Below, one piece after another: positions 2,965 through 12,236 of a DNA stretch of 24,000 nt. Each line of letters begins with the position of its first letter. Position 1 is the first letter of the stretch. This DNA is from Methanobacteriota archaeon. GTDB taxonomy: Archaea; Thermoplasmatota; E2; DHVEG-1. The stretch lies in the NCBI GenBank assembly GCA_903877165.1, contig CAIRCU010000006.1, positions 1 to 24,000 on the forward strand, read 5' to 3'. A model generated the notes under the pieces. That model did not search any database, was not told the DNA's origin, and was given only the letters and a program-made list of their open reading frames with translations. Made by a program: the position numbers and the translations under genes.

Positions 2965-2990
2965 CCGGCGGCCTCATGTCACCTTTGAGT

Positions 2991-3575
2991 ATGAAGGAGA
3001 CGCTCCTGGTCGTCGAACACTGCGAGAAAGGTCTCTCCGAATGGCTCACGCTTGAGTACCGGCATGCGGCCAACATCTGGCCACGCCACACCCTCTTCAC
3101 CAACGTCAAATCTCCTGCGACCGCCGCAAAACTGCGCGCCTACGGGGAAGTGACCCGTGAAAAGGCTAACGACCACCTCGCCGGACACCGCTGCCTCATC
3201 CTCGACCCCAAAGCAGCCGCGCCCCTCACCCCGCACGATTTCACCGGCCTCTATGCCGTCATCATCGGTGGCATCCTGGGCTACAAGACCCCGCGAGGCA
3301 GGACCAAGGCACTCATCAGCGACCATTCATCGTTCGAGACCAGGCATATCGGATCCATCCAGCTGACGATCGATGGCGCCGCGTTCGTCGCCAAGGCAAT
3401 CGCACTCGGCATGAAACTTGAGGACATCGAGATCGCGTACGAAGTCGAAATCACCCACAACCCGGTGCACAGCACGGTTCTTCCCTTCGGCTACCCAGTA
3501 ATCGACGGAAAACCGATCATCACGCCAGGACTCATCGAGTACCTGACCAGGGATGAAGAAACGAAGAAGACTTAG
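2991..3575 (+). CDS. SPOUT-fold methyltransferase, DUF431 / Sfm1-like
   Basis: The track ORF is 2976..3575. I use the second ATG (MKETLLVVEHCEKGLSEWLTLEY...) because of TATA spacing and because yeast Sfm1, as I recall it, starts the same way (MKYIIEHMEEGFSEWVILEY). Further shared blocks: CLILDPKA...GGILG...PRGRTKAL and LPFGYPV.DGKPIITPGL. Confidence 0.7.
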   Translation: MKETLLVVEHCEKGLSEWLTLEYRHAANIWPRHTLFTNVKSPATAAKLRAYGEVTREKANDHLAGHRCLILDPKAAAPLTPHDFTGLYAVIIGGILGYKTPRGRTKALISDHSSFETRHIGSIQLTIDGAAFVAKAIALGMKLEDIEIAYEVEITHNPVHSTVLPFGYPVIDGKPIITPGLIEYLTRDEETKKT

Positions 3576-3811
3576 CTTTCTTGCACGGCGAGACTCATGG
3601 CGACCGGCCCGCGCTTCGACTCAGACACGCGGTATATCACCTTGTCGCCCTTCTGCAGATAAATCGTCCAGAACGGCAGCTCGGACTTATGTACGAACAC
3701 CCGCTGACCATCGTCACCACGGATGAACCCAAAGCCCTTCCGCACGTCATAGAACGACACGATGCCCTGCATCGTCATCTGTTCATCATTTGCTTGTTGT
3801 GAAATATTCAT
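3572..3811 (-). CDS. Cold-shock domain protein (CspA family)
   Basis: GIVSFYDVRKGFGFIRGDDGQRVFVHKSEL carries the RNP1 (KGFGFI) and RNP2-like (VFVH) motifs of the CSD OB fold. The true start may be the internal MTMQG or MQG rather than 3811. Confidence 0.8.
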   Translation of the reverse strand: MNISQQANDEQMTMQGIVSFYDVRKGFGFIRGDDGQRVFVHKSELPFWTIYLQKGDKVIYRVSESKRGPVAMSLAVQES

Positions 3812-3954: not shown

Positions 3955-4434
3955 GTGCCAGCCACACCACAGACTCCAACCGTCAGACACGCGACACCAG
4001 ACGACCTCCCCAGCATCATCGCCCTCGAAAACAAATGTTTCCCCGGCCCCATCGCCTACACCCCACGACAGCTCTGCTACCTCCTCACCACAGCCAACAG
4101 CGCCGTCCTCGTCGAAACCCTCCACAACCGTCTCCGCGGCTTCATCATCATCCTCTACCGCCGCGGCTCCACCACCGCCGGCATCGAGACCATCGACGTC
4201 GACCCAGACGCCCAACGCAATGGCATCGCACGCCGACTCCTCACCGCCGCAGAAGACGACATGCACGCCCACCATATCGCCCGCGTCAGACTCGAAGTCT
4301 CAACCCAAAACACACCGGCCATCGGCCTCTACCAACACGCCGGATACAACACCACAGAGTTCCTCCACAACTACTACACCTACAAGCATCACGGCTCACG
4401 CGACGCGTTCCGCATGACCAAAGACCTCTCATGA
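3955..4434 (+). CDS. GNAT-family N-acetyltransferase (RimI-like)
   Basis: 159 aa with a GTG start. IRHATPDDLPSIIALE opening and acetyl-CoA motif A (IDVDPDAQRNGIARRLL). Size is typical of RimI-type enzymes. Confidence 0.8.
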   Translation: MPATPQTPTVRHATPDDLPSIIALENKCFPGPIAYTPRQLCYLLTTANSAVLVETLHNRLRGFIIILYRRGSTTAGIETIDVDPDAQRNGIARRLLTAAEDDMHAHHIARVRLEVSTQNTPAIGLYQHAGYNTTEFLHNYYTYKHHGSRDAFRMTKDLS

Positions 4435-5855
4435 CGAGGCACCACGCAGGACACCCACTCCCCGTCCTGTAACCCGCAATACCCTTTTGTGTACTCCTCC
4501 ATGATCGACAGCAGACTGTCACGGAACTGCGCAGGGACGTACTCCATGCTGCACGACGGACCGTTGTGGATTCGCTCCACATGATCGACGCTGCGCACCT
4601 CAGGCCCAGCACCCCCCTGCATCAGGAAAAACGACTGCTCCTTCTCATCCTTATCCAGCTTCAGGTTCGACGTCTTCACCCGGGCAGGGAACCCTTCCAC
4701 CGCCTGCTTCGTGTACCGAATCAGCTGCGGATCGATCTTATTGGCGAGCAAGAACAACAGGATTCCCATGCACTTCGAGCACGTCCCGCAGGGGATGACC
4801 TCCTCGCCTTCGATATGGCAAGAGTGGCATGACCGCTGGTTCCTCGCAAGATCAGGGTACCGCGAGAACAAGATCCGCTCCACGATCAACCCCGTGATGG
4901 GCCGCACCGCCGACCACTGCACCATCCCAGGCATCCGCCGTTGGTACCACAGGTTCATCCGACGATCGAAGCTCACATCCTGGTCATAGATGCCATAATA
5001 ATCAACCAGCCCCTTGAACGACGGCGTCATCCGCAGATCATCAAACTCGCTGCCAATCAGGAGGTTACCGATCCTCCGCTGCGCGAACAGCGGCATGAGC
5101 GCGAACACATAGTACGGGAAGATGCACATGCGGACGGGGTACACATCCGCCCTGATCTGCCGGTGGTCTTTCCGAATAAAGGGCAAGTGATCCAGCATGA
5201 ACAGATAGAAACGATCCACGTTCGTCCACACCCGTCCCGTGTTCGGCTCGGTCTGCTCATGGTACCGATACGCGGTCATCGCGGTTCGCCAATGCCCGCC
5301 GCTCTCATTCACATACAGCGGATGCACATCCACGCCAAGCTCCTTGAGCATCCCGTACGTGGTAAGACTTTCCTTCCCGCCGCTTGAGAGAATCCCACAG
5401 CGCAATGCATCGAAGTCTTTCTGTAGAGGGGCATCCGTCGCAATCGAATCAGGGATGAAGGTCGATTTCGGCTTCGCGGCCGCCGCCGTCGCATCCTCTT
5501 CAGCGATCTGGTACCCGGGCAGCAGGTACGGCGCCGACGGCTTGACGAGCTCATGGATATACGTCTCACCGCAAAACACCGCGTTGAGATCATTGAGGAG
5601 GCCGAGGTCCGCGGAGCTGACCGGGAACCGCAGGGTGAACCGCTCAGTGAACAACCCGTAGTTCAGCAACGGCATGCAGAACGCGAGCCGGAGAAACGGT
5701 AGAAACTCAGAGGAGATCGGATCTTGGTACTGCAGGGACAGGTCGAACGAGAACTGCTGCTTGTGCCGCGTCGTTAGGGTCACGGTCGTCGTCGCCGTAG
5801 TCTTATCAATGACGGGCTCTGAAAGGCTGATGTCTTTGAAGCAGACGAAATCCAT
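4389..5855 (-). CDS. QueC-like PP-loop ATP pyrophosphatase with Cys4-type metal site and an uncharacterised 150-aa N-terminal domain; function unknown
   Basis: 488-aa ORF. PP-loop variant GILSSGGKES (residues about 155-163, nt 5367-5387). About 190 aa later comes C-x2-C-x9-C-G-x-C-x2-C (RSCHSCHIEGEEVIPCGTCSKC, nt 4770-4829), which matches the spacing of the QueC zinc motif. The start lies 2 nt after the stop of the upstream DUF1611 gene. Confidence 0.6.
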   Translation of the reverse strand: MDFVCFKDISLSEPVIDKTTATTTVTLTTRHKQQFSFDLSLQYQDPISSEFLPFLRLAFCMPLLNYGLFTERFTLRFPVSSADLGLLNDLNAVFCGETYIHELVKPSAPYLLPGYQIAEEDATAAAAKPKSTFIPDSIATDAPLQKDFDALRCGILSSGGKESLTTYGMLKELGVDVHPLYVNESGGHWRTAMTAYRYHEQTEPNTGRVWTNVDRFYLFMLDHLPFIRKDHRQIRADVYPVRMCIFPYYVFALMPLFAQRRIGNLLIGSEFDDLRMTPSFKGLVDYYGIYDQDVSFDRRMNLWYQRRMPGMVQWSAVRPITGLIVERILFSRYPDLARNQRSCHSCHIEGEEVIPCGTCSKCMGILLFLLANKIDPQLIRYTKQAVEGFPARVKTSNLKLDKDEKEQSFFLMQGGAGPEVRSVDHVERIHNGPSCSMEYVPAQFRDSLLSIMEEYTKGYCGLQDGEWVSCVVPRHERSLVMRNASREP

Positions 5856-5857
5856 AG

Positions 5858-6913
5858 TTAGGTCACCTTTTCCGTTAACGGTTCGATCGCGTCGATGATG
5901 CCGGCGACGCCATCGGTGAGCGGGTCGACGACAGGGACATGAAACAGATTAGCATAGCGTTGGATGACTGCAGGCATTTGGGCCGGTGAGAGATGCTCAT
6001 GGTTCAAACCGATCCCAAGCAATGGTTTTTCCGTTAAAAGCTCAGCGATGGTGACGACGCGTTTGGGATCCGGCATGGGATAGCCTGGGAAGCCGTCGAG
6101 ATGCGGCCGGCCCGGGGCATCCATGAGCAGAAACCCATGGACGCGACCAGCAGCGAGGATTTCGAAACCGCCGGGGAAAAAGGGATGGACGAGGCTGCCC
6201 TGCCCTTCGATGACGATGAACTGCGGATGGTCGTCCCTCCAGCTGTCGATGATGGCGCCTTCGATACCGCCGGAGACGAAGTCGTTGATGAGGGCGTCGA
6301 GGACGACGCCATGACGCCAGCCCTGCATCCAGCCGGTCTGCCCCGTGAAAATCATGTCCGCGCTGTACCCGCGTTTCCGAAGCTCGTTGACCAAAACGAC
6401 GGCCATGGTGCGTTTACCAATCGCGGAGTCCGTGCCAAGCAAGGCGATGCGCACCGACGGGATGTTGATTATTTCCCCGGTGTAGAACCGCTTGTGGTCC
6501 CGGTAGATTTTCCGTACATCGGTGATGGTGCAGCCGTGTTTGTTAGCGAGAGCGACGCAGCGCGGCTTGTCCGAAATGAACTCGTGCAGACCGGAGACGA
6601 CGTTGAGGCCATGACCAAGGGCCCATTCGACCGCGCCCTCGTACCCCGATGGGAGGACGCCGCCTTCGGAGACCGCGCCGACGATGAAGGTCTCCGGCTT
6701 GGTTCGCATGACTGCAGTCTCAAGTGAAGGAAAGACGGGAATGCCGCTGGGTTTTCCATCCAGGATCTGTCCGGCGTCGCCGCCAGGCAGCGTGGAGTCA
6801 ACGACGCCGACGATGCTGTAGCGTTGGCAGTAGCGGACGAGGCCATGAGCGGTCTTGCCGTCGGTCGCGGTAAAGAGCCGGTCAGCGTACACGATAGCGC
6901 GTGGTAAGGTCAT
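5858..6913 (-). CDS. DUF1611 (DgcN-like) protein: Rossmann-like N-domain plus P-loop-like C-domain
   Basis: 351 aa. The opening (AIVYADRLFTATDGKTAHGLVRY...) and the mid-region GTDSAIGKRT loop fit my memory of the DUF1611/PF07755 family. It is tightly packed between two co-oriented genes. Confidence 0.65.
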   Translation of the reverse strand: MTLPRAIVYADRLFTATDGKTAHGLVRYCQRYSIVGVVDSTLPGGDAGQILDGKPSGIPVFPSLETAVMRTKPETFIVGAVSEGGVLPSGYEGAVEWALGHGLNVVSGLHEFISDKPRCVALANKHGCTITDVRKIYRDHKRFYTGEIINIPSVRIALLGTDSAIGKRTMAVVLVNELRKRGYSADMIFTGQTGWMQGWRHGVVLDALINDFVSGGIEGAIIDSWRDDHPQFIVIEGQGSLVHPFFPGGFEILAAGRVHGFLLMDAPGRPHLDGFPGYPMPDPKRVVTIAELLTEKPLLGIGLNHEHLSPAQMPAVIQRYANLFHVPVVDPLTDGVAGIIDAIEPLTEKVT

Positions 6914-6961
6914 ACGAAGATCACGTTCGATGGTCCTGGAAAAGTCCTCACGCTGTTGGTG

Positions 6962-7978
6962 TTAGCGGAATTTCCTCCCCGTGAGAACAAGGACGTAATC
7001 GGAGTTGAGGACGCGGTGCTGTTTGAATCTGATGAGTGCTTCGATGGGGCTGGTGGAGGCGGGAAGCACGTTGAGGCCTTCGAAGTCTCTGAGGATCCTA
7101 TGGTACTTCATCATGGAGGCGTCACTGGCGTAGTCCGCCCAGCCATTGCTGTCGTAGATCGCGCTGAGGGCGTCGTCGCCGTCGTACGAATGGTAGCTGA
7201 TGAGCGGCTCGTTAATCGTAGTCTCATGGAGCTCCTCAGGGCGGAGGTCCTCGGTCTTGGAGGCACCGGTCTTGAAGCTGCGCACGATCGGGTTGCCACC
7301 TGGAGTGGAGGCGCCGACGAGGTAAGGAATGTGGTCAATGATGCCCTGGTCGAGCAGGTGTTTGAAGCCGTGGTAGATGCCGACGAGGGTAGTGCCGTTG
7401 CCGACCGGGGCAGCGACCGCGGTGGGGCAGCGGCCGAGCTGCGCGTAGATCTCAGTCGCGATGCTCATGTAGCCGCGCCAACCTTCGTTGCCGTTGCCTG
7501 GATTCGCGTCGTAGTAGTGCTCGGTCTTGGCGAGCCTTCGGCTGGCTTCGACCGCGTCTTCGTACTTATCGTAATCGCTGAGGATCTCTGCGCCGAGTGA
7601 GTGGAGCGTTTCGCGGCGATGCGGCGTCATGGTGTATTTCTCTGGGATGAGGATTTTTGCTTTGAGGCCGACTAGGTTGGCGAAGTACGCGAGTGAGACG
7701 CCGTAGTTACCGCACGTACCCACGGTGACGGTATCGTACCCCTCACGCATCGCCTTGTGCACGTGGTACTGAGAAATGCGGTCCTTCTGCGTCCCAGTGG
7801 GATTGCTGCCTTCGAACTTCAGGTAGATGTTCCCAAAACCCAGGAGCGACTCAAGGTTTCGCGCGTGAGTAAATAATGTTCCCCCAACCACCTTGGTGGG
7901 TGGCGGCTCCTCATCTTTTTGGAGGCCCAACACATCCATTTTTTGTAAACTCCCATGTCCTTTGACGATTTGGGACAA
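6962..7978 (-). CDS. Fold-type II PLP-dependent enzyme, threonine-synthase-like
   Basis: KFEGSNPTGTQKDR is the PLP-lysine motif (compare NPTGSFKDR in ThrC/CysK). PVGNGTTLVGI is the phosphate-binding Gly loop (compare PVGNAGN in ThrC). The listed start at 7978 is TTG, and an ATG 13 codons in (7939, MDVLGL...) is an alternative. Confidence 0.8.
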   Translation of the reverse strand: MSQIVKGHGSLQKMDVLGLQKDEEPPPTKVVGGTLFTHARNLESLLGFGNIYLKFEGSNPTGTQKDRISQYHVHKAMREGYDTVTVGTCGNYGVSLAYFANLVGLKAKILIPEKYTMTPHRRETLHSLGAEILSDYDKYEDAVEASRRLAKTEHYYDANPGNGNEGWRGYMSIATEIYAQLGRCPTAVAAPVGNGTTLVGIYHGFKHLLDQGIIDHIPYLVGASTPGGNPIVRSFKTGASKTEDLRPEELHETTINEPLISYHSYDGDDALSAIYDSNGWADYASDASMMKYHRILRDFEGLNVLPASTSPIEALIRFKQHRVLNSDYVLVLTGRKFR

Positions 7979-8150
7979 GACCCTATATGTGAAACGAGTT
8001 CTTAAATTTTTACGTAACGACGCTGTTCGAAAAAATTTTTTTTGCGCGTTTGGAAAATTTCGTGAGGCTCACTTTGTTTTCTTCGTCGCAACGACTGAGC
8101 GTGTTTTCTGCACCGCGGCGTGTGTTTTTTTGTGAGCTGTTTTCCCTAGG

Positions 8151-8159
8151 TTTTATATA
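8151..8159 (+). promoter_or_regulatory. TATA box (TTTTATATA) for the small zinc-ribbon ORF
   Basis: Strong archaeal TATA consensus about 58 nt upstream of the ATG at 8213. An AGGAG Shine-Dalgarno sits at 8201-8205. Confidence 0.55.
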
Positions 8160-8212
8160 GCGCCATGTCATTGCCAGGCGTAGGATCACCTCTACGAACT
8201 AGGAGCACTACT

Positions 8213-8344
8213 ATGCCGCATTACTGCAGTATTTGTGGAGATGAGTTAGAGCCTGAAGAAGAGCAAGAGGGTATCTGCGAGAGCTGCAAGCTTTCTCAAG
8301 GCGTGGAACCCGGCACGGATGATGTGGAAACCGAATCCCATTGA
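8213..8344 (+). CDS. 43-aa zinc-ribbon protein (below the ORF-track size cut-off)
   Basis: My own translation: MPHYCSICGDELEPEEEQEGICESCKLSQGVEPGTDDVETESH. It has two CxxC pairs, AGGAG 7 nt upstream, a TATA box upstream, and a hairpin plus T8 run downstream. Confidence 0.55.
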   Translation: MPHYCSICGDELEPEEEQEGICESCKLSQGVEPGTDDVETESH

Positions 8345-8499: not shown

Positions 8500-8733
8500 A
8501 TGGCCATTGGCTTTGTCTTAATTCATGTCGCGCCCGCGCATGAGCACGAGGTCTACAACAAGCTAACAAAACTGCCGCAGATCATCGAGCTGCATCCGCT
8601 GTTCGGTGAGTACGATCTCATCGCGAAGATCGAGGCGAAGGATTTCGAGGAACTCGGGACGATCATCGTCAACAAGATCCGCTCGATTACCGGCGTGCTT
8701 GACACCAAGACCTTGACCGGACTGACGTTCTAA
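8500..8733 (+). CDS. Stand-alone Lrp/AsnC-type ligand-binding (RAM) domain protein
   Basis: 77 aa. The pattern AFVLIHV...V...L..LP.V.E.H.L.GEYDL.AKIEA.D..EL...I..KIR.I.GV..T.T is the AsnC_trans_reg fold without the HTH domain. Confidence 0.8.
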   Translation: MAIGFVLIHVAPAHEHEVYNKLTKLPQIIELHPLFGEYDLIAKIEAKDFEELGTIIVNKIRSITGVLDTKTLTGLTF

Positions 8734-9384: not shown

Positions 9385-10287
9385 ATGGCCTACTGTACAC
9401 GCTGCGGGGTGCAGAACCCCGAGGATGCACACTACTGCAGTAAATGCGGATCCCTGCTGGCCGGGTCCAGCGTAGACCTCGAGCGGCACATCCATCATTT
9501 CTCCCAGGAAGTCGAGGAGTTGGGCCGGCGGCTTGACCGCTCAATCCAGAACAGGGAGCGGCGTCACGAGTCATGGTACGACCGCACGTTCGGCGTCTTC
9601 GGGCCACTCATCAGCAGCGTCATCGGCCTGCTAGTCCTCCTGCTCGTCATCCAGGCGCTCATCACGGTGAGCGGCCAGGGTGTATGGCCCATGCGGGTCG
9701 CCAACTTCCTTAAGAACTACATCGGGGTCCTATTCGTACTCATGCTGATTGGGGGATACGTCTCGTATCTCTCCCGGAAGTACCGTCCGTTCCGCTGGGT
9801 CGCGCCGCTCATCGGCGGCATCATCTTCTACATCATGCTGTGGCTAGTGAGCATTATCCTCTCAGCTCTCAGCGTGGACCTCGCGAACCAGACGCTTCAG
9901 ACCATCTCCAATCAGTTCACGGTTCTCGCCTTGCCGCTGACGTTCCTCATCGTCGGCTTAGGGTACATCGGATTGTTCTTCTCACTATCACGACATGACG
10001 ACCATCCGCTGCCTCCCACACCGCCATCACCGACGCCCGCACCGTCGGCAGCCCCGGTTCAACCACCCATGCCAGCGCCCGTTGCGCCGCCCGCGCGCCT
10101 CTATCGCTCGGGGCGGGAGCGGATTCTCGGCGGGGTCTGCGGCGGCATCGCCGAGTACCTCAACATCGACCCGGTCATCATCCGCGTGGTGTTCGTCATC
10201 GGCATGGTCCTCTCCTTCGGCGTCCTCGTCCTCGGGTACTTCCTACTGTGGATCCTCGTGCCGCGCAACCCCAGTCATCCATGGTGA
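9385..10287 (+). CDS. Membrane protein: N-terminal zinc ribbon, four TM helices, Pro-rich linker, C-terminal PspC domain
   Basis: MAYCTRCGVQNPEDAHYCSKCGS (CxxC-x12-CxxC); hydrophobic helices; PPTPPSPTPAPSAAPVQPPMPAPVAPPA; then LYRSGRERILGGVCGGIAEYLNIDPVIIRVVFV, the PspC signature. Confidence 0.8.
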   Translation: MAYCTRCGVQNPEDAHYCSKCGSLLAGSSVDLERHIHHFSQEVEELGRRLDRSIQNRERRHESWYDRTFGVFGPLISSVIGLLVLLLVIQALITVSGQGVWPMRVANFLKNYIGVLFVLMLIGGYVSYLSRKYRPFRWVAPLIGGIIFYIMLWLVSIILSALSVDLANQTLQTISNQFTVLALPLTFLIVGLGYIGLFFSLSRHDDHPLPPTPPSPTPAPSAAPVQPPMPAPVAPPARLYRSGRERILGGVCGGIAEYLNIDPVIIRVVFVIGMVLSFGVLVLGYFLLWILVPRNPSHPW

Positions 10288-10330: not shown

Positions 10331-10346
10331 GTTCCTCCTTGTGTGA

Positions 10347-10417
10347 CAGCCCCGGGCGGATTTGAACCGCCGACGTTGGCTCCAAAGGCCAAAATGTTGC
10401 CACTACACCACGGGGCT
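10347..10417 (-). tRNA. tRNA-Gln (anticodon UUG), 71 nt, no encoded CCA
   Basis: Hand-folded cloverleaf: AGCCCCG TG GTGT AGTGGCA ACAT T TTGGC CTTTGGA GCCAA CGTC GGCGG TTCAAAT CCGCC CGGGGCT G. All stems are Watson-Crick or G-U. It has A1-U72 and G73. Confidence 0.9.
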
Positions 10418-10449
10418 ATAGACCTACCCGGTAACAGAGCCATGGCATT

Positions 10450-12132
10450 TTAAGGTTTAGGACCCGCCGCGCTCTGAATCTTCCCCCATGTGTCCCGCAG
10501 TTCCGTCGTGCGGTTCAAGACGAGATGGCCGGGGGTCGTGTCAGTGTCGACGCAGAAGTACCCGAGGCGTTCGAACTGGAAGCGATCTAGCGGCTTGCAG
10601 GTCTTGACCGCTGGCTCGACCTTACACTGCTGCAGGATCTCCAGGGATTGGGGGTTCAGGAGCGTCTTATAGTCGGCGCCCTTCTGATCCAGGGGATCGC
10701 GTACCGTGAACAGCTTGTTGTACAATCGGACTTCAGCGTCCACGGCGTCCGATGCGGACACCCAGTGGATCGTTGACTTCACCTTCCGGCCGTCCGGGGC
10801 GTACCCGCCCTTGGTCGCCGGGTCGTACGTGCAGCGCAGCTCCACGACCTTTCCATCGCGTTTGACGACATCCCGGCAGGTGATGAAATACGCGTAGCGC
10901 AGCCGTACCTCGCGGCCCAGGGCGAGACGGTAGAACTTCGGCGGCGGCTGCTCCATGAAGTCGTCCTGTTCGATGTACAGGGTCTTGGAGAACGGGATCC
11001 GCCGCGAGCCCATGCCCGGGTCCTCAGGGTTGTTGACGGCGTCGACCTCCTCCTTGGTCTCCGGGTAGTTCTCAATCGTCACTTTCAATGGCCTTAGGAC
11101 GCCCATGTACCGCGGCGCGGTCTTGTTGAGATCCTCGCGGATGCAGTACTCGAGGAACTCGAAGTCCACGATGCTGTTGACCTTGGCGACACCGATGCGC
11201 TTGGCGAACGTCCGGATCCCTGAGGGTGAGTACCCGCGTCTGCGCATCCCGGAGATCGTCGGAAGCCTTGGGTCGTCCCAGCCTTTGACGAGGCCGTCAT
11301 TCACGAGTTGCAGTAGCAGCCGTTTGCTCATCACCGTGAAGGTGAGGTTAAGGCGGGCGAACTCGATTTGCTGCGGGTGGTACACGCCGAGGGCGTCCAG
11401 GAACCAGTCGTACAGCGGACGGTGGTTCTCGAACTCAAGTGTGCAGATCGAATGCGTGATGTGCTCGATGGAGTCCTCGAGGCCGTGCGCCCAGTCGTAC
11501 ATTGGGTAAATACACCATTTATCCCCTGTGTTGTGATGGGTGGCGCGCAGGATGCGGTACATCACCGGGTCGCGCATGTTGAGGTTCGGGTGGTTCATGT
11601 CGATCTTTGCGCGCAGGACCTTGGAGCCGTCCGGGAACTCCCCGGCCTTCATGCGGCGGAACAACGAAAGGTTCTCGTCGATGGAGCGGTCGCGGTACGG
11701 GCTCTTCGTCCCTGGATTGGTGAGGGTGCCACGCAGCTCCGCGATCTGGTCCGCGGTGAGGTCGTCGACGTACGCCTTGCCTTTCTTGACAAGGTCTTCT
11801 GCGTACGTGTACATCTGGTCGAAATAGTCGGAGGCATAGAACAATCTGTCCTGCCAGTCGAAGCCGAGCCATTTGACGTCCGTGATGATGGACTGGACGT
11901 ACTCCTCTTCTTCTTTGGCTGGGTTGGTGTCGTCGAAGCGCAGGTTGCATTTGCCGTTGTACTGCTCGGCGATGCCGAAGTTCAGGCAGATGGATTTCGC
12001 ATGGCCGATGTGCAGGTAGCCGTTTGGCTCCGGTGGGAACCGGGTATGTACGCGTCCCTGGTACTTGTTGGACGCGAGGTCCGCGTCGATGATCTCTCGG
12101 ATGAAGTCCTTGCTTGCCTGCGGCTCGGCCAT
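10450..12132 (-). CDS. glnS: Glutaminyl-tRNA synthetase, bacterial type
   Basis: Near-colinear with E. coli GlnS as I recall it: [63 protein letters not shown] (HIGH), TVMSKR (KMSKS), and C-terminal FQFERLGYF...NRT..LRDTW. The track start at 12138 is GTG. The ATG at 12132 (MAEPQ...) has a GGGAG 8 nt upstream and is preferred. Confidence 0.95.
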
Positions 12133-12164
12133 CTTCACATCTCCCTTTTCTTGTGGTGATGAAG

Positions 12165-12236
12165 CAGCCCCGAGCGGATTCGAACCGCTGACAAGAGATC
12201 CAGAGTCTCCTATGTTAACCGCTACACCACGGGGCT
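12165..12236 (-). tRNA. tRNA-Gln (anticodon CUG), 72 nt, no encoded CCA
   Basis: Hand-folded: AGCCCCG TG GTGT AGCGGTTA ACAT A GGAGA CTCTGGA TCTCT TGTC AGCGG TTCGAAT CCGCT CGGGGCT G. The acceptor and D stems are identical to those of the UUG isoacceptor. Confidence 0.9.

Follow-up and report, generated by a model that had tools for sequence, protein, structure and literature searches.

The 24,000-nucleotide stretch analysed here, called the window in the following (contig CAIRCU010000006.1 of a Methanobacteriota archaeon; GTDB lineage Archaea; Thermoplasmatota; E2; DHVEG-1), contains three genes on its minus strand that form a conserved operon. They encode a pyridoxal 5'-phosphate (PLP) enzyme (gene 1), a DUF1611 protein (gene 2), and a PP-loop protein resembling the 7-cyano-7-deazaguanine synthase QueC (gene 3), which is the signature gene of the module. 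The kinds of enzymes are known. The family of the gene 3 protein is new, however, the pathway is undescribed, and a literature search found no publication on this gene module. Our preferred reading, which we hold tentatively and with somewhat less than even confidence, is that the module is an ATP-driven pathway that would build a small N-acylated amino-acid or dipeptide amide.

A conserved operon of three genes

The main features of the locus are, by position in the window:
6962..7939, minus strand: PLP gene (gene 1), 325 residues from the ATG; the longest open reading frame (ORF) starts from TTG 7978
5858..6913, minus strand: DUF1611 gene (gene 2), 351 residues
4389..5855, minus strand: QueC-like PP-loop gene (gene 3), 488 residues, signature gene of the module
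5421..5855, minus strand: N-terminal domain of the gene 3 protein, about residues 1-145
5367..5387, minus strand: PP-loop motif S157-S-G-G-K-E-S163 of gene 3
4770..4829, minus strand: cysteine cluster C343-x2-C346-x9-C356-G-x-C359-x2-C362 of gene 3, predicted QueC-type zinc site
3955..4434, plus strand: GNAT acetyltransferase, converging on gene 3

The gaps between the genes are 48 nucleotides (genes 1 and 2) and 2 nucleotides (genes 2 and 3), and the ORF list agrees with this layout of three co-oriented genes as it had been given in the original prediction, which was made from the sequence of the window. The Pfam matches of genes 1 and 2, of GNAT, and of the RAM-domain protein described below leave no ambiguity about their families. 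The in-frame ATG at 7939 gives a PLP enzyme of 325 residues, the length called for its homologues, and is most likely the start of the gene instead of TTG 7978. Translational coupling of genes 2 and 3 had been suggested as well. It is plausible because the DUF1611 gene contains a Shine-Dalgarno-like GGTGA motif at its end, just 5' of the gene 3 ATG, and because the corresponding junctions of homologues are overlaps of 4 to 35 nucleotides. As also described before, the GNAT ORF converges on gene 3, whose 3' end it overlaps over 46 nucleotides. A scan for sigma-70 promoters and terminators was uninformative, as expected for archaeal DNA.

Scanning one genome per GTDB species, we found relatives of gene 3 in at least 578 species genomes. 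The archaeal carriers are Thermoplasmatota (including Methanomassiliicoccales, Aciduliprofundum, and Thermoplasmataceae), Bathyarchaeia, Thermococcus, Tiamatella/Thermoproteota, and Nitrososphaerales, and cluster look-ups added NC10/Methylomirabilales bacteria. Gene neighbourhoods were counted in 91 loci holding gene 3, many of which are incomplete. The DUF1611 gene lies directly upstream of gene 3 in 82 of these loci, and the PLP gene is present in 63. The flanks include a GNAT homologue in 48 loci, a gene of the MR/MLE enolase superfamily in 23, and one for an M14-like peptidase in 20. Starting the search in metagenomes from the PLP gene gave the reverse picture, with DUF1611 directly downstream in 73 of the 79 loci that have room for it and gene 3 present in 58 of 64. 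Gene 3 is shown to be an obligate partner of DUF1611.

The adjacency is kept in both search directions across at least four archaeal phyla and bacteria. In bacterial contigs the order PLP gene, DUF1611, PP-loop gene persists at 28-34% identity: the loci L083, L086, and L087 continue, partly via a creatininase gene, into an MR/MLE gene, and L088 and L093 keep the same core, in L088 also with an MR/MLE gene. The co-localisation of the orthologues, on which the predicted operon depended, holds across phyla and down to 28-29% identity of the gene 3 protein. Several proteins combine the partners in one chain. DUF1611 is fused to the gene 3 protein in P0137, a creatininase-family amidohydrolase in P0136, P0140, P0177, and P0180, and a methyltransferase domain in P0138. 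No transporter is consistently linked among the recurrent neighbours of the gene 3 loci, and none of queD, queE, tgt, and arcS is present in the window or among these neighbours. A plasmid search found nothing.

A new protein family with a QueC-like fold

The gene 3 protein matched nothing in Pfam, NCBIfam, PADLOC, or the sequences of the PDB. Its homologues in a collection of 5.8 billion proteins comprise 1280 clusters at 90% identity, none of which carries a Pfam domain. Almost all of them are unnamed or called 'hypothetical protein' or 'metal-binding protein', and a single automatic JGI annotation labels one homologue 7-cyano-7-deazaguanine synthase. Only 291 family clusters at 50% identity came out of an exhaustive profile search over 1.84 billion representatives, and the family is therefore compact and distinct.

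The PP-loop SGGKES (residues 158-163) is present as predicted and invariant in the family (29 and 15 diverse homologues), its acidic residue being E in the window protein and D in many homologues. The invariant residues are found in the motifs LSSGGK(E/D)SL, NESGGHW, GSEFDD, YDQ, QRSCHSCH, and PCGxCSKC. The second motif of the original prediction, C-x9-C-G-x-C-x2-C, is also present (C346-x9-C356-G-x-C359-x2-C362), but the first cysteine conserved across distant homologues is C343 and not C346, and the family-wide motif is C-x12-C-x2-C-x2-C. Down to 19-30% identity, C343, C356, and C359 never vary and C362 hardly does. Compared to the zinc motif of QueC, C(x)8CxxCxxC, the protein has the variant C343-x12-C356-x2-C359-x2-C362 and in addition C346-x9-C356. 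Based on the modelled fold and on sub-threshold profile matches the cysteine cluster is predicted to be a QueC-type zinc site.

The AlphaFold2 model of the gene 3 protein has a predicted local distance difference test score (pLDDT) of 85.8 and a predicted template modelling score of 0.88. Its top Foldseek matches in the PDB are QatC (9y01/9y02), QueC (2pg3, 3bl5), YcfA, and Cap9, followed by the tRNA thiolases NcsA and TtuA and the enzyme LarE. Like QueC, Cap9, and QatC, it has a PP-loop fold of Rossmann type, an SGGxDS-type loop, and a C-terminal site of four cysteines at similar spacing from the PP-loop. The link to QueC rests mainly on the fold because hhalign against a single E. coli QueC aligned the PP-loop and the following strand only, placing SGGKES on SGGQDS, at 3.7% probability. 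The Pfam model PF06508 is found below threshold over the cysteine region of three relatives (11.6-13.4 bits, cut-off 22); the window protein did not match it at E<=10. The structural matches, the PP-loop alignment, and these sub-threshold hits support the QueC-like assignment that had been proposed.

QueC needs the motifs YxQxHxxE, VPxRN, and YPDC for function (PMC13329287), and these are not recognisably conserved in the gene 3 family. YxQxHxxE and YPDC are missing from the window protein, the segment aligned to the YxQxHxxE region is YVNESGGHW, and a 'YPVR' at residues 239-242 resembles VPxRN by eye only. Judged by its modelled fold and its motifs, the gene 3 protein represents a new family within the superfamily of QueC-like PP-loop proteins and is not a QueC, because these essential motifs are not recognisably kept. 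With QatC it has in common that there are extra N- and C-terminal parts. However, it matches neither PF06508 nor the PADLOC model of QatC, and its gene context consists of a PLP enzyme and DUF1611 in contrast to the que genes, CD-NTase, or qatABD that surround QueC, Cap9, and QatC. We have considered gene 3 as a QatC and rejected this assignment because of the unmatched PADLOC model, the metabolic neighbours without qatA, qatB, or qatD, and the different topology of the N-terminal domain. A TtuA/NcsA-type iron-sulfur sulfurtransferase was rejected as well, as there is no conserved cysteine triad between the PP-loop and the C-terminal cluster.

The N-terminal domain had been described as one that could not be placed. 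Modelled alone it reaches a pLDDT of 90.7 and shows a beta3-alpha-beta-alpha topology; it carries the invariant motif PLLNYGLF. The structure search gave no confident relative. The weak matches are RNase-H-like (EndoV, Argonaute PIWI, UvrC, and RuvC; template modelling score about 0.35, E about 1e-3), the family lacks conserved acidic residues of nuclease type in this domain, and the designation as a novel domain is fair. The isoelectric point of the domain is uninformative on nucleic-acid binding because it ranges from 4.5 to 9.8 across the family. The N-terminal extension of QatC is a parallel four-stranded sheet (PMC13279940), whereas the gene 3 domain is predicted to be mostly antiparallel and RNase-H-like.

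Some distant homologues deviate from the family. The bacterial proteins P0181 and P0184 no longer have a PP-loop (VLIEGIAEG replaces VLSSGGKES), contain long low-complexity insertions, and may be inactive pseudo-enzymes. The gene contexts of the distant stand-alone bacterial homologues P0220 and P0177 are uninformative.

The PLP enzyme is probably not a threonine synthase

Gene 1 encodes a fold-type II PLP enzyme (Pfam PALP, E=4e-51) with the PLP lysine in the ThrC/CysK-type motif SNPTGTQKDR, in agreement with its first description. It scores 406.7 bits against the NCBIfam model NF004996/PRK06381, a 'threonine synthase' equivalog with a cut-off of 266, but only 76 bits against TIGR00260 (thrC, cut-off 167.1), and it is below the cut-offs of all other ThrC models too. 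Four PLP enzymes linked to the module elsewhere (L005, L065, L086, and L088, some of them bacterial) behave in the same way, matching NF004996 at 380-425 bits and failing TIGR00260. It thus appears that NF004996 models the PLP enzyme of this module. The motifs conserved in this enzyme family are CGNYG, YDxNxG, NGxT, NEPL, and LPAS.

The closest solved structures are the threonine synthases of Aquifex, Mycobacterium, Bacillus, and Thermus, and the protein has the NPTGxxKDR lysine motif and the fold-type II PLP fold in common with ThrC. When aligned to Thermus ThrC (1uim), it retains the PLP lysine and the GN loop. The positions of S155 and R160 (Thermus ThrC numbering), which we take to bind the phosphate of O-phosphohomoserine, are P and G, respectively, and the sequence found there is YDxNxG, although the alignment of this loop is uncertain. 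In addition, the clade is nearly always found in an operon with DUF1611 and the QueC-like gene and not with thr genes. Because of this adjacency, and because the presumed phosphate-binding residues are not conserved, the name 'threonine synthase' of NF004996 is probably wrong.

The DUF1611 protein, a relative of DgcN

The gene 2 protein matches both DUF1611 domains, PF17396 (DUF1611_N; E=8.8e-23, 80.9 bits, cut-off 22.6) and PF07755 (DUF1611_C; E=1.3e-53, 181.8 bits, cut-off 25), and consists of an N-terminal Rossmann-like and a C-terminal P-loop domain. The motifs GKTAHGL, GTDSAxGKRT (Walker-A-like), and EGQG are conserved in 62 module-linked homologues and would fit nucleotide or coenzyme A (CoA) binding. 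Relatives in the PDB are 7xrj, 2obn, and 2g0t (E about 1e-32). The long DUF1611 ORFs of L058 and L061 were rejected as fusions, since their extra N-terminal residues are of low complexity and are read as ORF over-extension.

The assignment to DUF1611 and the relation to the D-glutamate N-acetyltransferase DgcN had already been made. The module shares with the DgcN-DgcA system the two-domain architecture of DUF1611 and, in many lineages, MR/MLE and amidohydrolase genes alongside. However, the DUF1611 protein scores 162.5 bits against the DgcN model NF041892, whose equivalog cut-off is 480, and the MR/MLE proteins are nearer to L-Ala-D/L-Glu epimerase than to DgcA. We know of no DgcN system with a PP-loop or PLP partner. 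None of the three operon proteins falls into a characterised group: the cut-offs of DgcN and TIGR00260 are not reached, the gene 3 protein belongs to no described family, and the NF004996 clade is tied to the operon.

GNAT, accessory enzymes, and variant loci

The confirmed three-gene module is not complete as it was first described, because the membership of GNAT, the recurrence of epimerase and amidohydrolase genes, and the fusion of DUF1611 or its replacement by an ATP-grasp gene had been missed. GNAT (Pfam Acetyltransf_1, E=5.9e-16) is the fourth member of the module, and in L063 and L065 it is co-directional with the other genes. It reaches 69.1 bits against the RimI model TIGR01575 and stays below the cut-off of 86.4. 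A deoxyhypusine synthase gene is located directly after GNAT in the Bathyarchaeia loci L028 (9997-10980), L032, L037, and L049, and L018 and L067 have homologues at other places of their flanks. This synteny may be coincidental.

The MR/MLE proteins contain the KxK motif, the metal ligands, and the DxD motif. Their best model is L-Ala-D/L-Glu epimerase (237 bits), followed by DgcA (148 bits), and they remain below both cut-offs. The M14-like neighbour (450 residues) is divergent, with HxxE..H..E motifs, and passes the cut-off of 21.6 in one member with 27.7 bits. In two loci of Bathyarchaeia (L028 and L032) the MR/MLE and M14 genes stand with the PLP gene, and the DUF1611, PP-loop, and GNAT genes are 1-2 kilobases away, an arrangement which ties all six genes together.

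Other loci deviate in the partner of the PP-loop protein. L153, L124, L128, and L119 have the PLP gene without DUF1611, as a PLP-GNAT pair beside a paralogue of gene 3. This paralogue (455 residues, 21% identity, E=2e-9) has an SFGKDS loop and the cysteine motif, and its subfamily (about 450 residues) was located at:
L153, 2419-4778, minus strand
L124, 5867-7396, minus strand
L128, 2-988, minus strand
L119, 3-329, minus strand
L093, 8637-9995, plus strand
In L153 and L124 the paralogue is followed, with an overlap of 4 nucleotides, by a gene for a D-Ala-D-Ala-ligase-like ATP-grasp enzyme, which suggests that either DUF1611 or an ATP-grasp ligase can serve as the partner of the QueC-like enzyme. 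In L093 the paralogue is in tandem with a gene of the main family. There, the PLP, DUF1611, and GNAT genes form one operon, which is convergent with a GNAT/HDAC fusion, the paralogue, and the PP-loop gene, and the module is adjoined by a fusion of an M15 peptidase with a beta-lactamase-family domain.

A possible ATP-driven pathway to an amide

That the module performs ATP-dependent tailoring of a small molecule derived from an amino acid had been proposed at the outset, and the synteny, the QueC-type fold, and the position of the families outside of characterised groups agree with this. In the pathway that we prefer, the PLP enzyme would catalyse a beta- or gamma-replacement or an elimination on an activated hydroxy-amino acid and so make or alter the building block. 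DUF1611 would perform an N-acylation or ligation step, either with acyl-CoA, like DgcN, or with ATP, which is considered because an ATP-grasp enzyme replaces DUF1611 in the variant loci. The QueC-like enzyme would adenylate a carboxylate of the intermediate and then form an amide by acyl transfer to either ammonia or an amine; this step is proposed because it is the chemistry of QueC, Cap9, and QatC. GNAT would acetylate a free amino group. In other lineages, the dipeptide epimerase would invert the C-terminal residue, and a zinc amidohydrolase (of M14, creatininase, or HDAC type) would deprotect the product or turn it over. Biosynthesis is favoured over breakdown because of the two ATP-type activating enzymes and of the RAM domain encoded next to the operon in the window (see below), which fits amino-acid feedback on a biosynthetic operon.

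The nearest well-understood system by its logic is the osmolyte operon asnO-ngg-peptidase (PA3459-PA3461), in which a GNAT/ligase, an amidating enzyme of asparagine-synthase type, and a peptidase lead to N-acetylglutaminylglutamine amide (PMC8070244). Both systems combine in one cluster a GNAT, an ATP-dependent enzyme forming peptide bonds, an amidating enzyme of PP-loop type, and a peptidase. However, none of the proteins is orthologous. The module is devoid of a glutamine-amidotransferase domain and of the Ngg fusion, and it has the PLP enzyme in addition and, in some lineages, the epimerase. The GNAT protein gives E=0.0012 and 17.5 bits against the Ngg model TIGR03103, for which the cut-off is 569, and the asparagine-synthase models of NCBIfam did not match the 488-residue gene 3 protein.

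Several observations weigh against a pathway of amide biosynthesis. The motifs essential in QueC are not recognisably conserved in the gene 3 family, and the only characterised relative of DUF1611, DgcN, is catabolic according to its NCBIfam name. GNAT could be a housekeeping N-terminal acetyltransferase. The genes for the MR/MLE epimerase and the M14 hydrolase are absent from the window, and epimerases with neighbours of M14, M15, and beta-lactamase type are classic enzymes of the breakdown of D-amino-acid peptides. The displacement of DUF1611 by ATP-grasp comes from about four metagenomic loci.

The most serious competitor, which we nevertheless regard as unlikely, is that the module serves the salvage or catabolism of D-amino-acid peptides, for example of pieces of bacterial cell walls that heterotrophic archaea in sediments take up. 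Peptidases would release a D-residue or dipeptide, DUF1611 or GNAT would N-acylate it, and the MR/MLE enzyme would invert it. A deacylase would then free the L-form, the PLP enzyme would degrade or convert it, and the QueC-like enzyme would have an ATP-dependent role such as the opening or closing of a lactam. This would account for the only named relative of DUF1611 being a D-glutamate N-acetyltransferase, for MR/MLE proteins nearest to L-Ala-D/L-Glu epimerase and DgcA in 23 of 91 loci, for the M14-like carboxypeptidase in 20 loci, and for the M15 peptidase/beta-lactamase-family fusion adjoining the module in L093. About 20 loci have the M14-like and MR/MLE genes side by side, like MpaA (an M14 amidase) and YcjG/YkfB (L-Ala-D/L-Glu epimerase), and the unit of GNAT, M14, and MR/MLE mirrors the N-succinyl-amino-acid-racemase route from D- to L-amino acids that Sakai et al. 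reportedly described in 2006. However, both proteins of the side-by-side pair score below the family cut-offs. The M14-like and MR/MLE genes are missing from the window and from most loci, about three quarters of them, whereas the universal core consists of DUF1611 and the PP-loop protein. The known D-to-L routes do not need a PP-loop enzyme, two ATP-type activating enzymes would be unusual in a breakdown pathway, no transporter is consistently linked, and the score against the DgcN model is far under its cut-off.

It is improbable, in our judgement, that the QueC-like enzyme modifies a macromolecule, either by ligating a carboxylate to a protein N-terminus or lysine, or by adenylating a tRNA base and attaching an amino acid, which in the tRNA version the PLP and DUF1611 enzymes would supply. 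QatC and Cap9, which are among the best structural matches, conjugate deazaguanine to protein N-termini (PMC13329287). The RNase-H-like topology of the extra N-terminal domain is common to nucleic-acid enzymes, and the RimI-like GNAT is a conserved neighbour. But the matches of this domain are weak and their catalytic acidic residues unconserved, the PADLOC model of QatC is unmatched, and the parallel N-extension of QatC is unlike the domain found here. There is also no conserved target protein adjoining the module, since the zinc-ribbon and RAM genes are restricted to 12 of 91 loci and the C-terminus of the zinc-ribbon protein is variable. The partnership with a dipeptide epimerase and peptidases rather points to small molecules.

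Even less probable is a divergent 7-deazaguanine (preQ0/archaeosine) enzyme acting on 7-carboxy-7-deazaguanine like QueC, a connection to queuosine and archaeosine that the original prediction had listed for checking. The QueC-like fold, the PP-loop, the four-cysteine site, and the single automatic JGI label are in line with it. But the cut-off of PF06508 is never reached, the substrate-binding motifs of QueC are absent, and there is no queD, queE, tgt, or arcS in the window or among the recurrent neighbours. Finally, an ordinary threonine synthase gene beside two unrelated hypothetical genes would explain the passed NF004996 equivalog and the closest solved structures but is hardly credible, given the adjacency across at least four archaeal phyla and bacteria, the overlapping or fused genes, the failed TIGR00260, and the presumed phosphate-binding positions S155 and R160, which are not conserved.

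Divergent neighbours and other genes of the window

Upstream of the operon, two genes are encoded divergently next door, as had been noted before:
7940..8164, no strand: divergent intergenic region, AT-rich, with a TATA-like stretch at about 8005-8045
8165..8344, plus strand: zinc-ribbon protein, conserved core from ATG 8213
8500..8733, plus strand: RAM-domain (Lrp/AsnC ligand-binding) protein, 77 residues
Judged from its sequence, the intergenic region probably carries the promoters for the operon as well as for the zinc-ribbon and RAM genes. The RAM-domain protein (Pfam AsnC_trans_reg, E=8.2e-17) may be a regulator that senses amino acids. Its sequence is 87-95% identical in relatives (including L002, L008, L012, and L053), whereas the operon enzymes in these loci are 51-79% identical; by sequence comparison, so strong a constraint on a small regulator is unusual. 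The link of its gene to the module (12 of 91 loci) is confined to the clade of the window. The zinc-ribbon protein is small and acidic, with a conserved core of about 43 residues (YCSxCGDELEPEEExEGICESCKL) and a variable C-terminus, and its gene is linked to the operon only within close relatives (likewise 12 of 91 loci). This gene is also found elsewhere in related contigs, not always adjoining the operon. A LysW-like carrier protein was considered and rejected because the C-terminus is not conserved.

The RAM-domain ORF is followed by a dCTP deaminase gene, which adjoins a gene for a membrane protein with an N-terminal zinc ribbon and a C-terminal PspC domain (9385-10287, plus strand). Further downstream, a GlnRS gene (10450..12138, minus strand, 562 residues) is located between tRNA-Gln genes with the anticodons TTG (10345-10418) and CTG (12164-12236). 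Archaea mostly use the GatDE route, and GlnRS is unusual there. The three genes (10345-12236) look like a compact module for the decoding of Gln, and a GlnRS of 67% identity is also found near the operon in the Thermoplasmata locus L022. At the other side of the operon, a homologue of the SFM1-like SPOUT protein arginine methyltransferase (E=7e-45; 2976-3575, plus strand) is encoded beside a cold-shock-domain protein (3572-3811, minus strand), whose best NCBIfam match is the retron Se72 effector model, below cut-off. Both genes seemed unusual for an archaeal chromosome.

Implications

The gene 3 family is large, yet it is without a Pfam or NCBIfam model, although its operon is among the most stable ones in several uncultured archaeal phyla that are dominant in sediments. 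A more specific and doubtful proposal is that DUF1611 and the QueC-like protein constitute a two-component, ATP-dependent machine for the formation of amides, which together with the PLP enzyme and GNAT would make a new and widespread metabolite. This product may be, for instance, a dipeptide-like amide carrying an N-acetyl group and a D-residue, used as an osmolyte, cofactor, or thiol. If this is true, the metabolite would be widespread in Thermoplasmatota, Bathyarchaeia, and some Thermococci, and the NF004996 'threonine synthase' would be a systematically misnamed family, which would inflate the predictions of threonine biosynthesis in archaeal metagenome-assembled genomes. An identified product would add an archaeal pathway and a second function of DUF1611. 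The QueC scaffold, which has recently been shown to be reused in phage defence, would extend to another chemistry.

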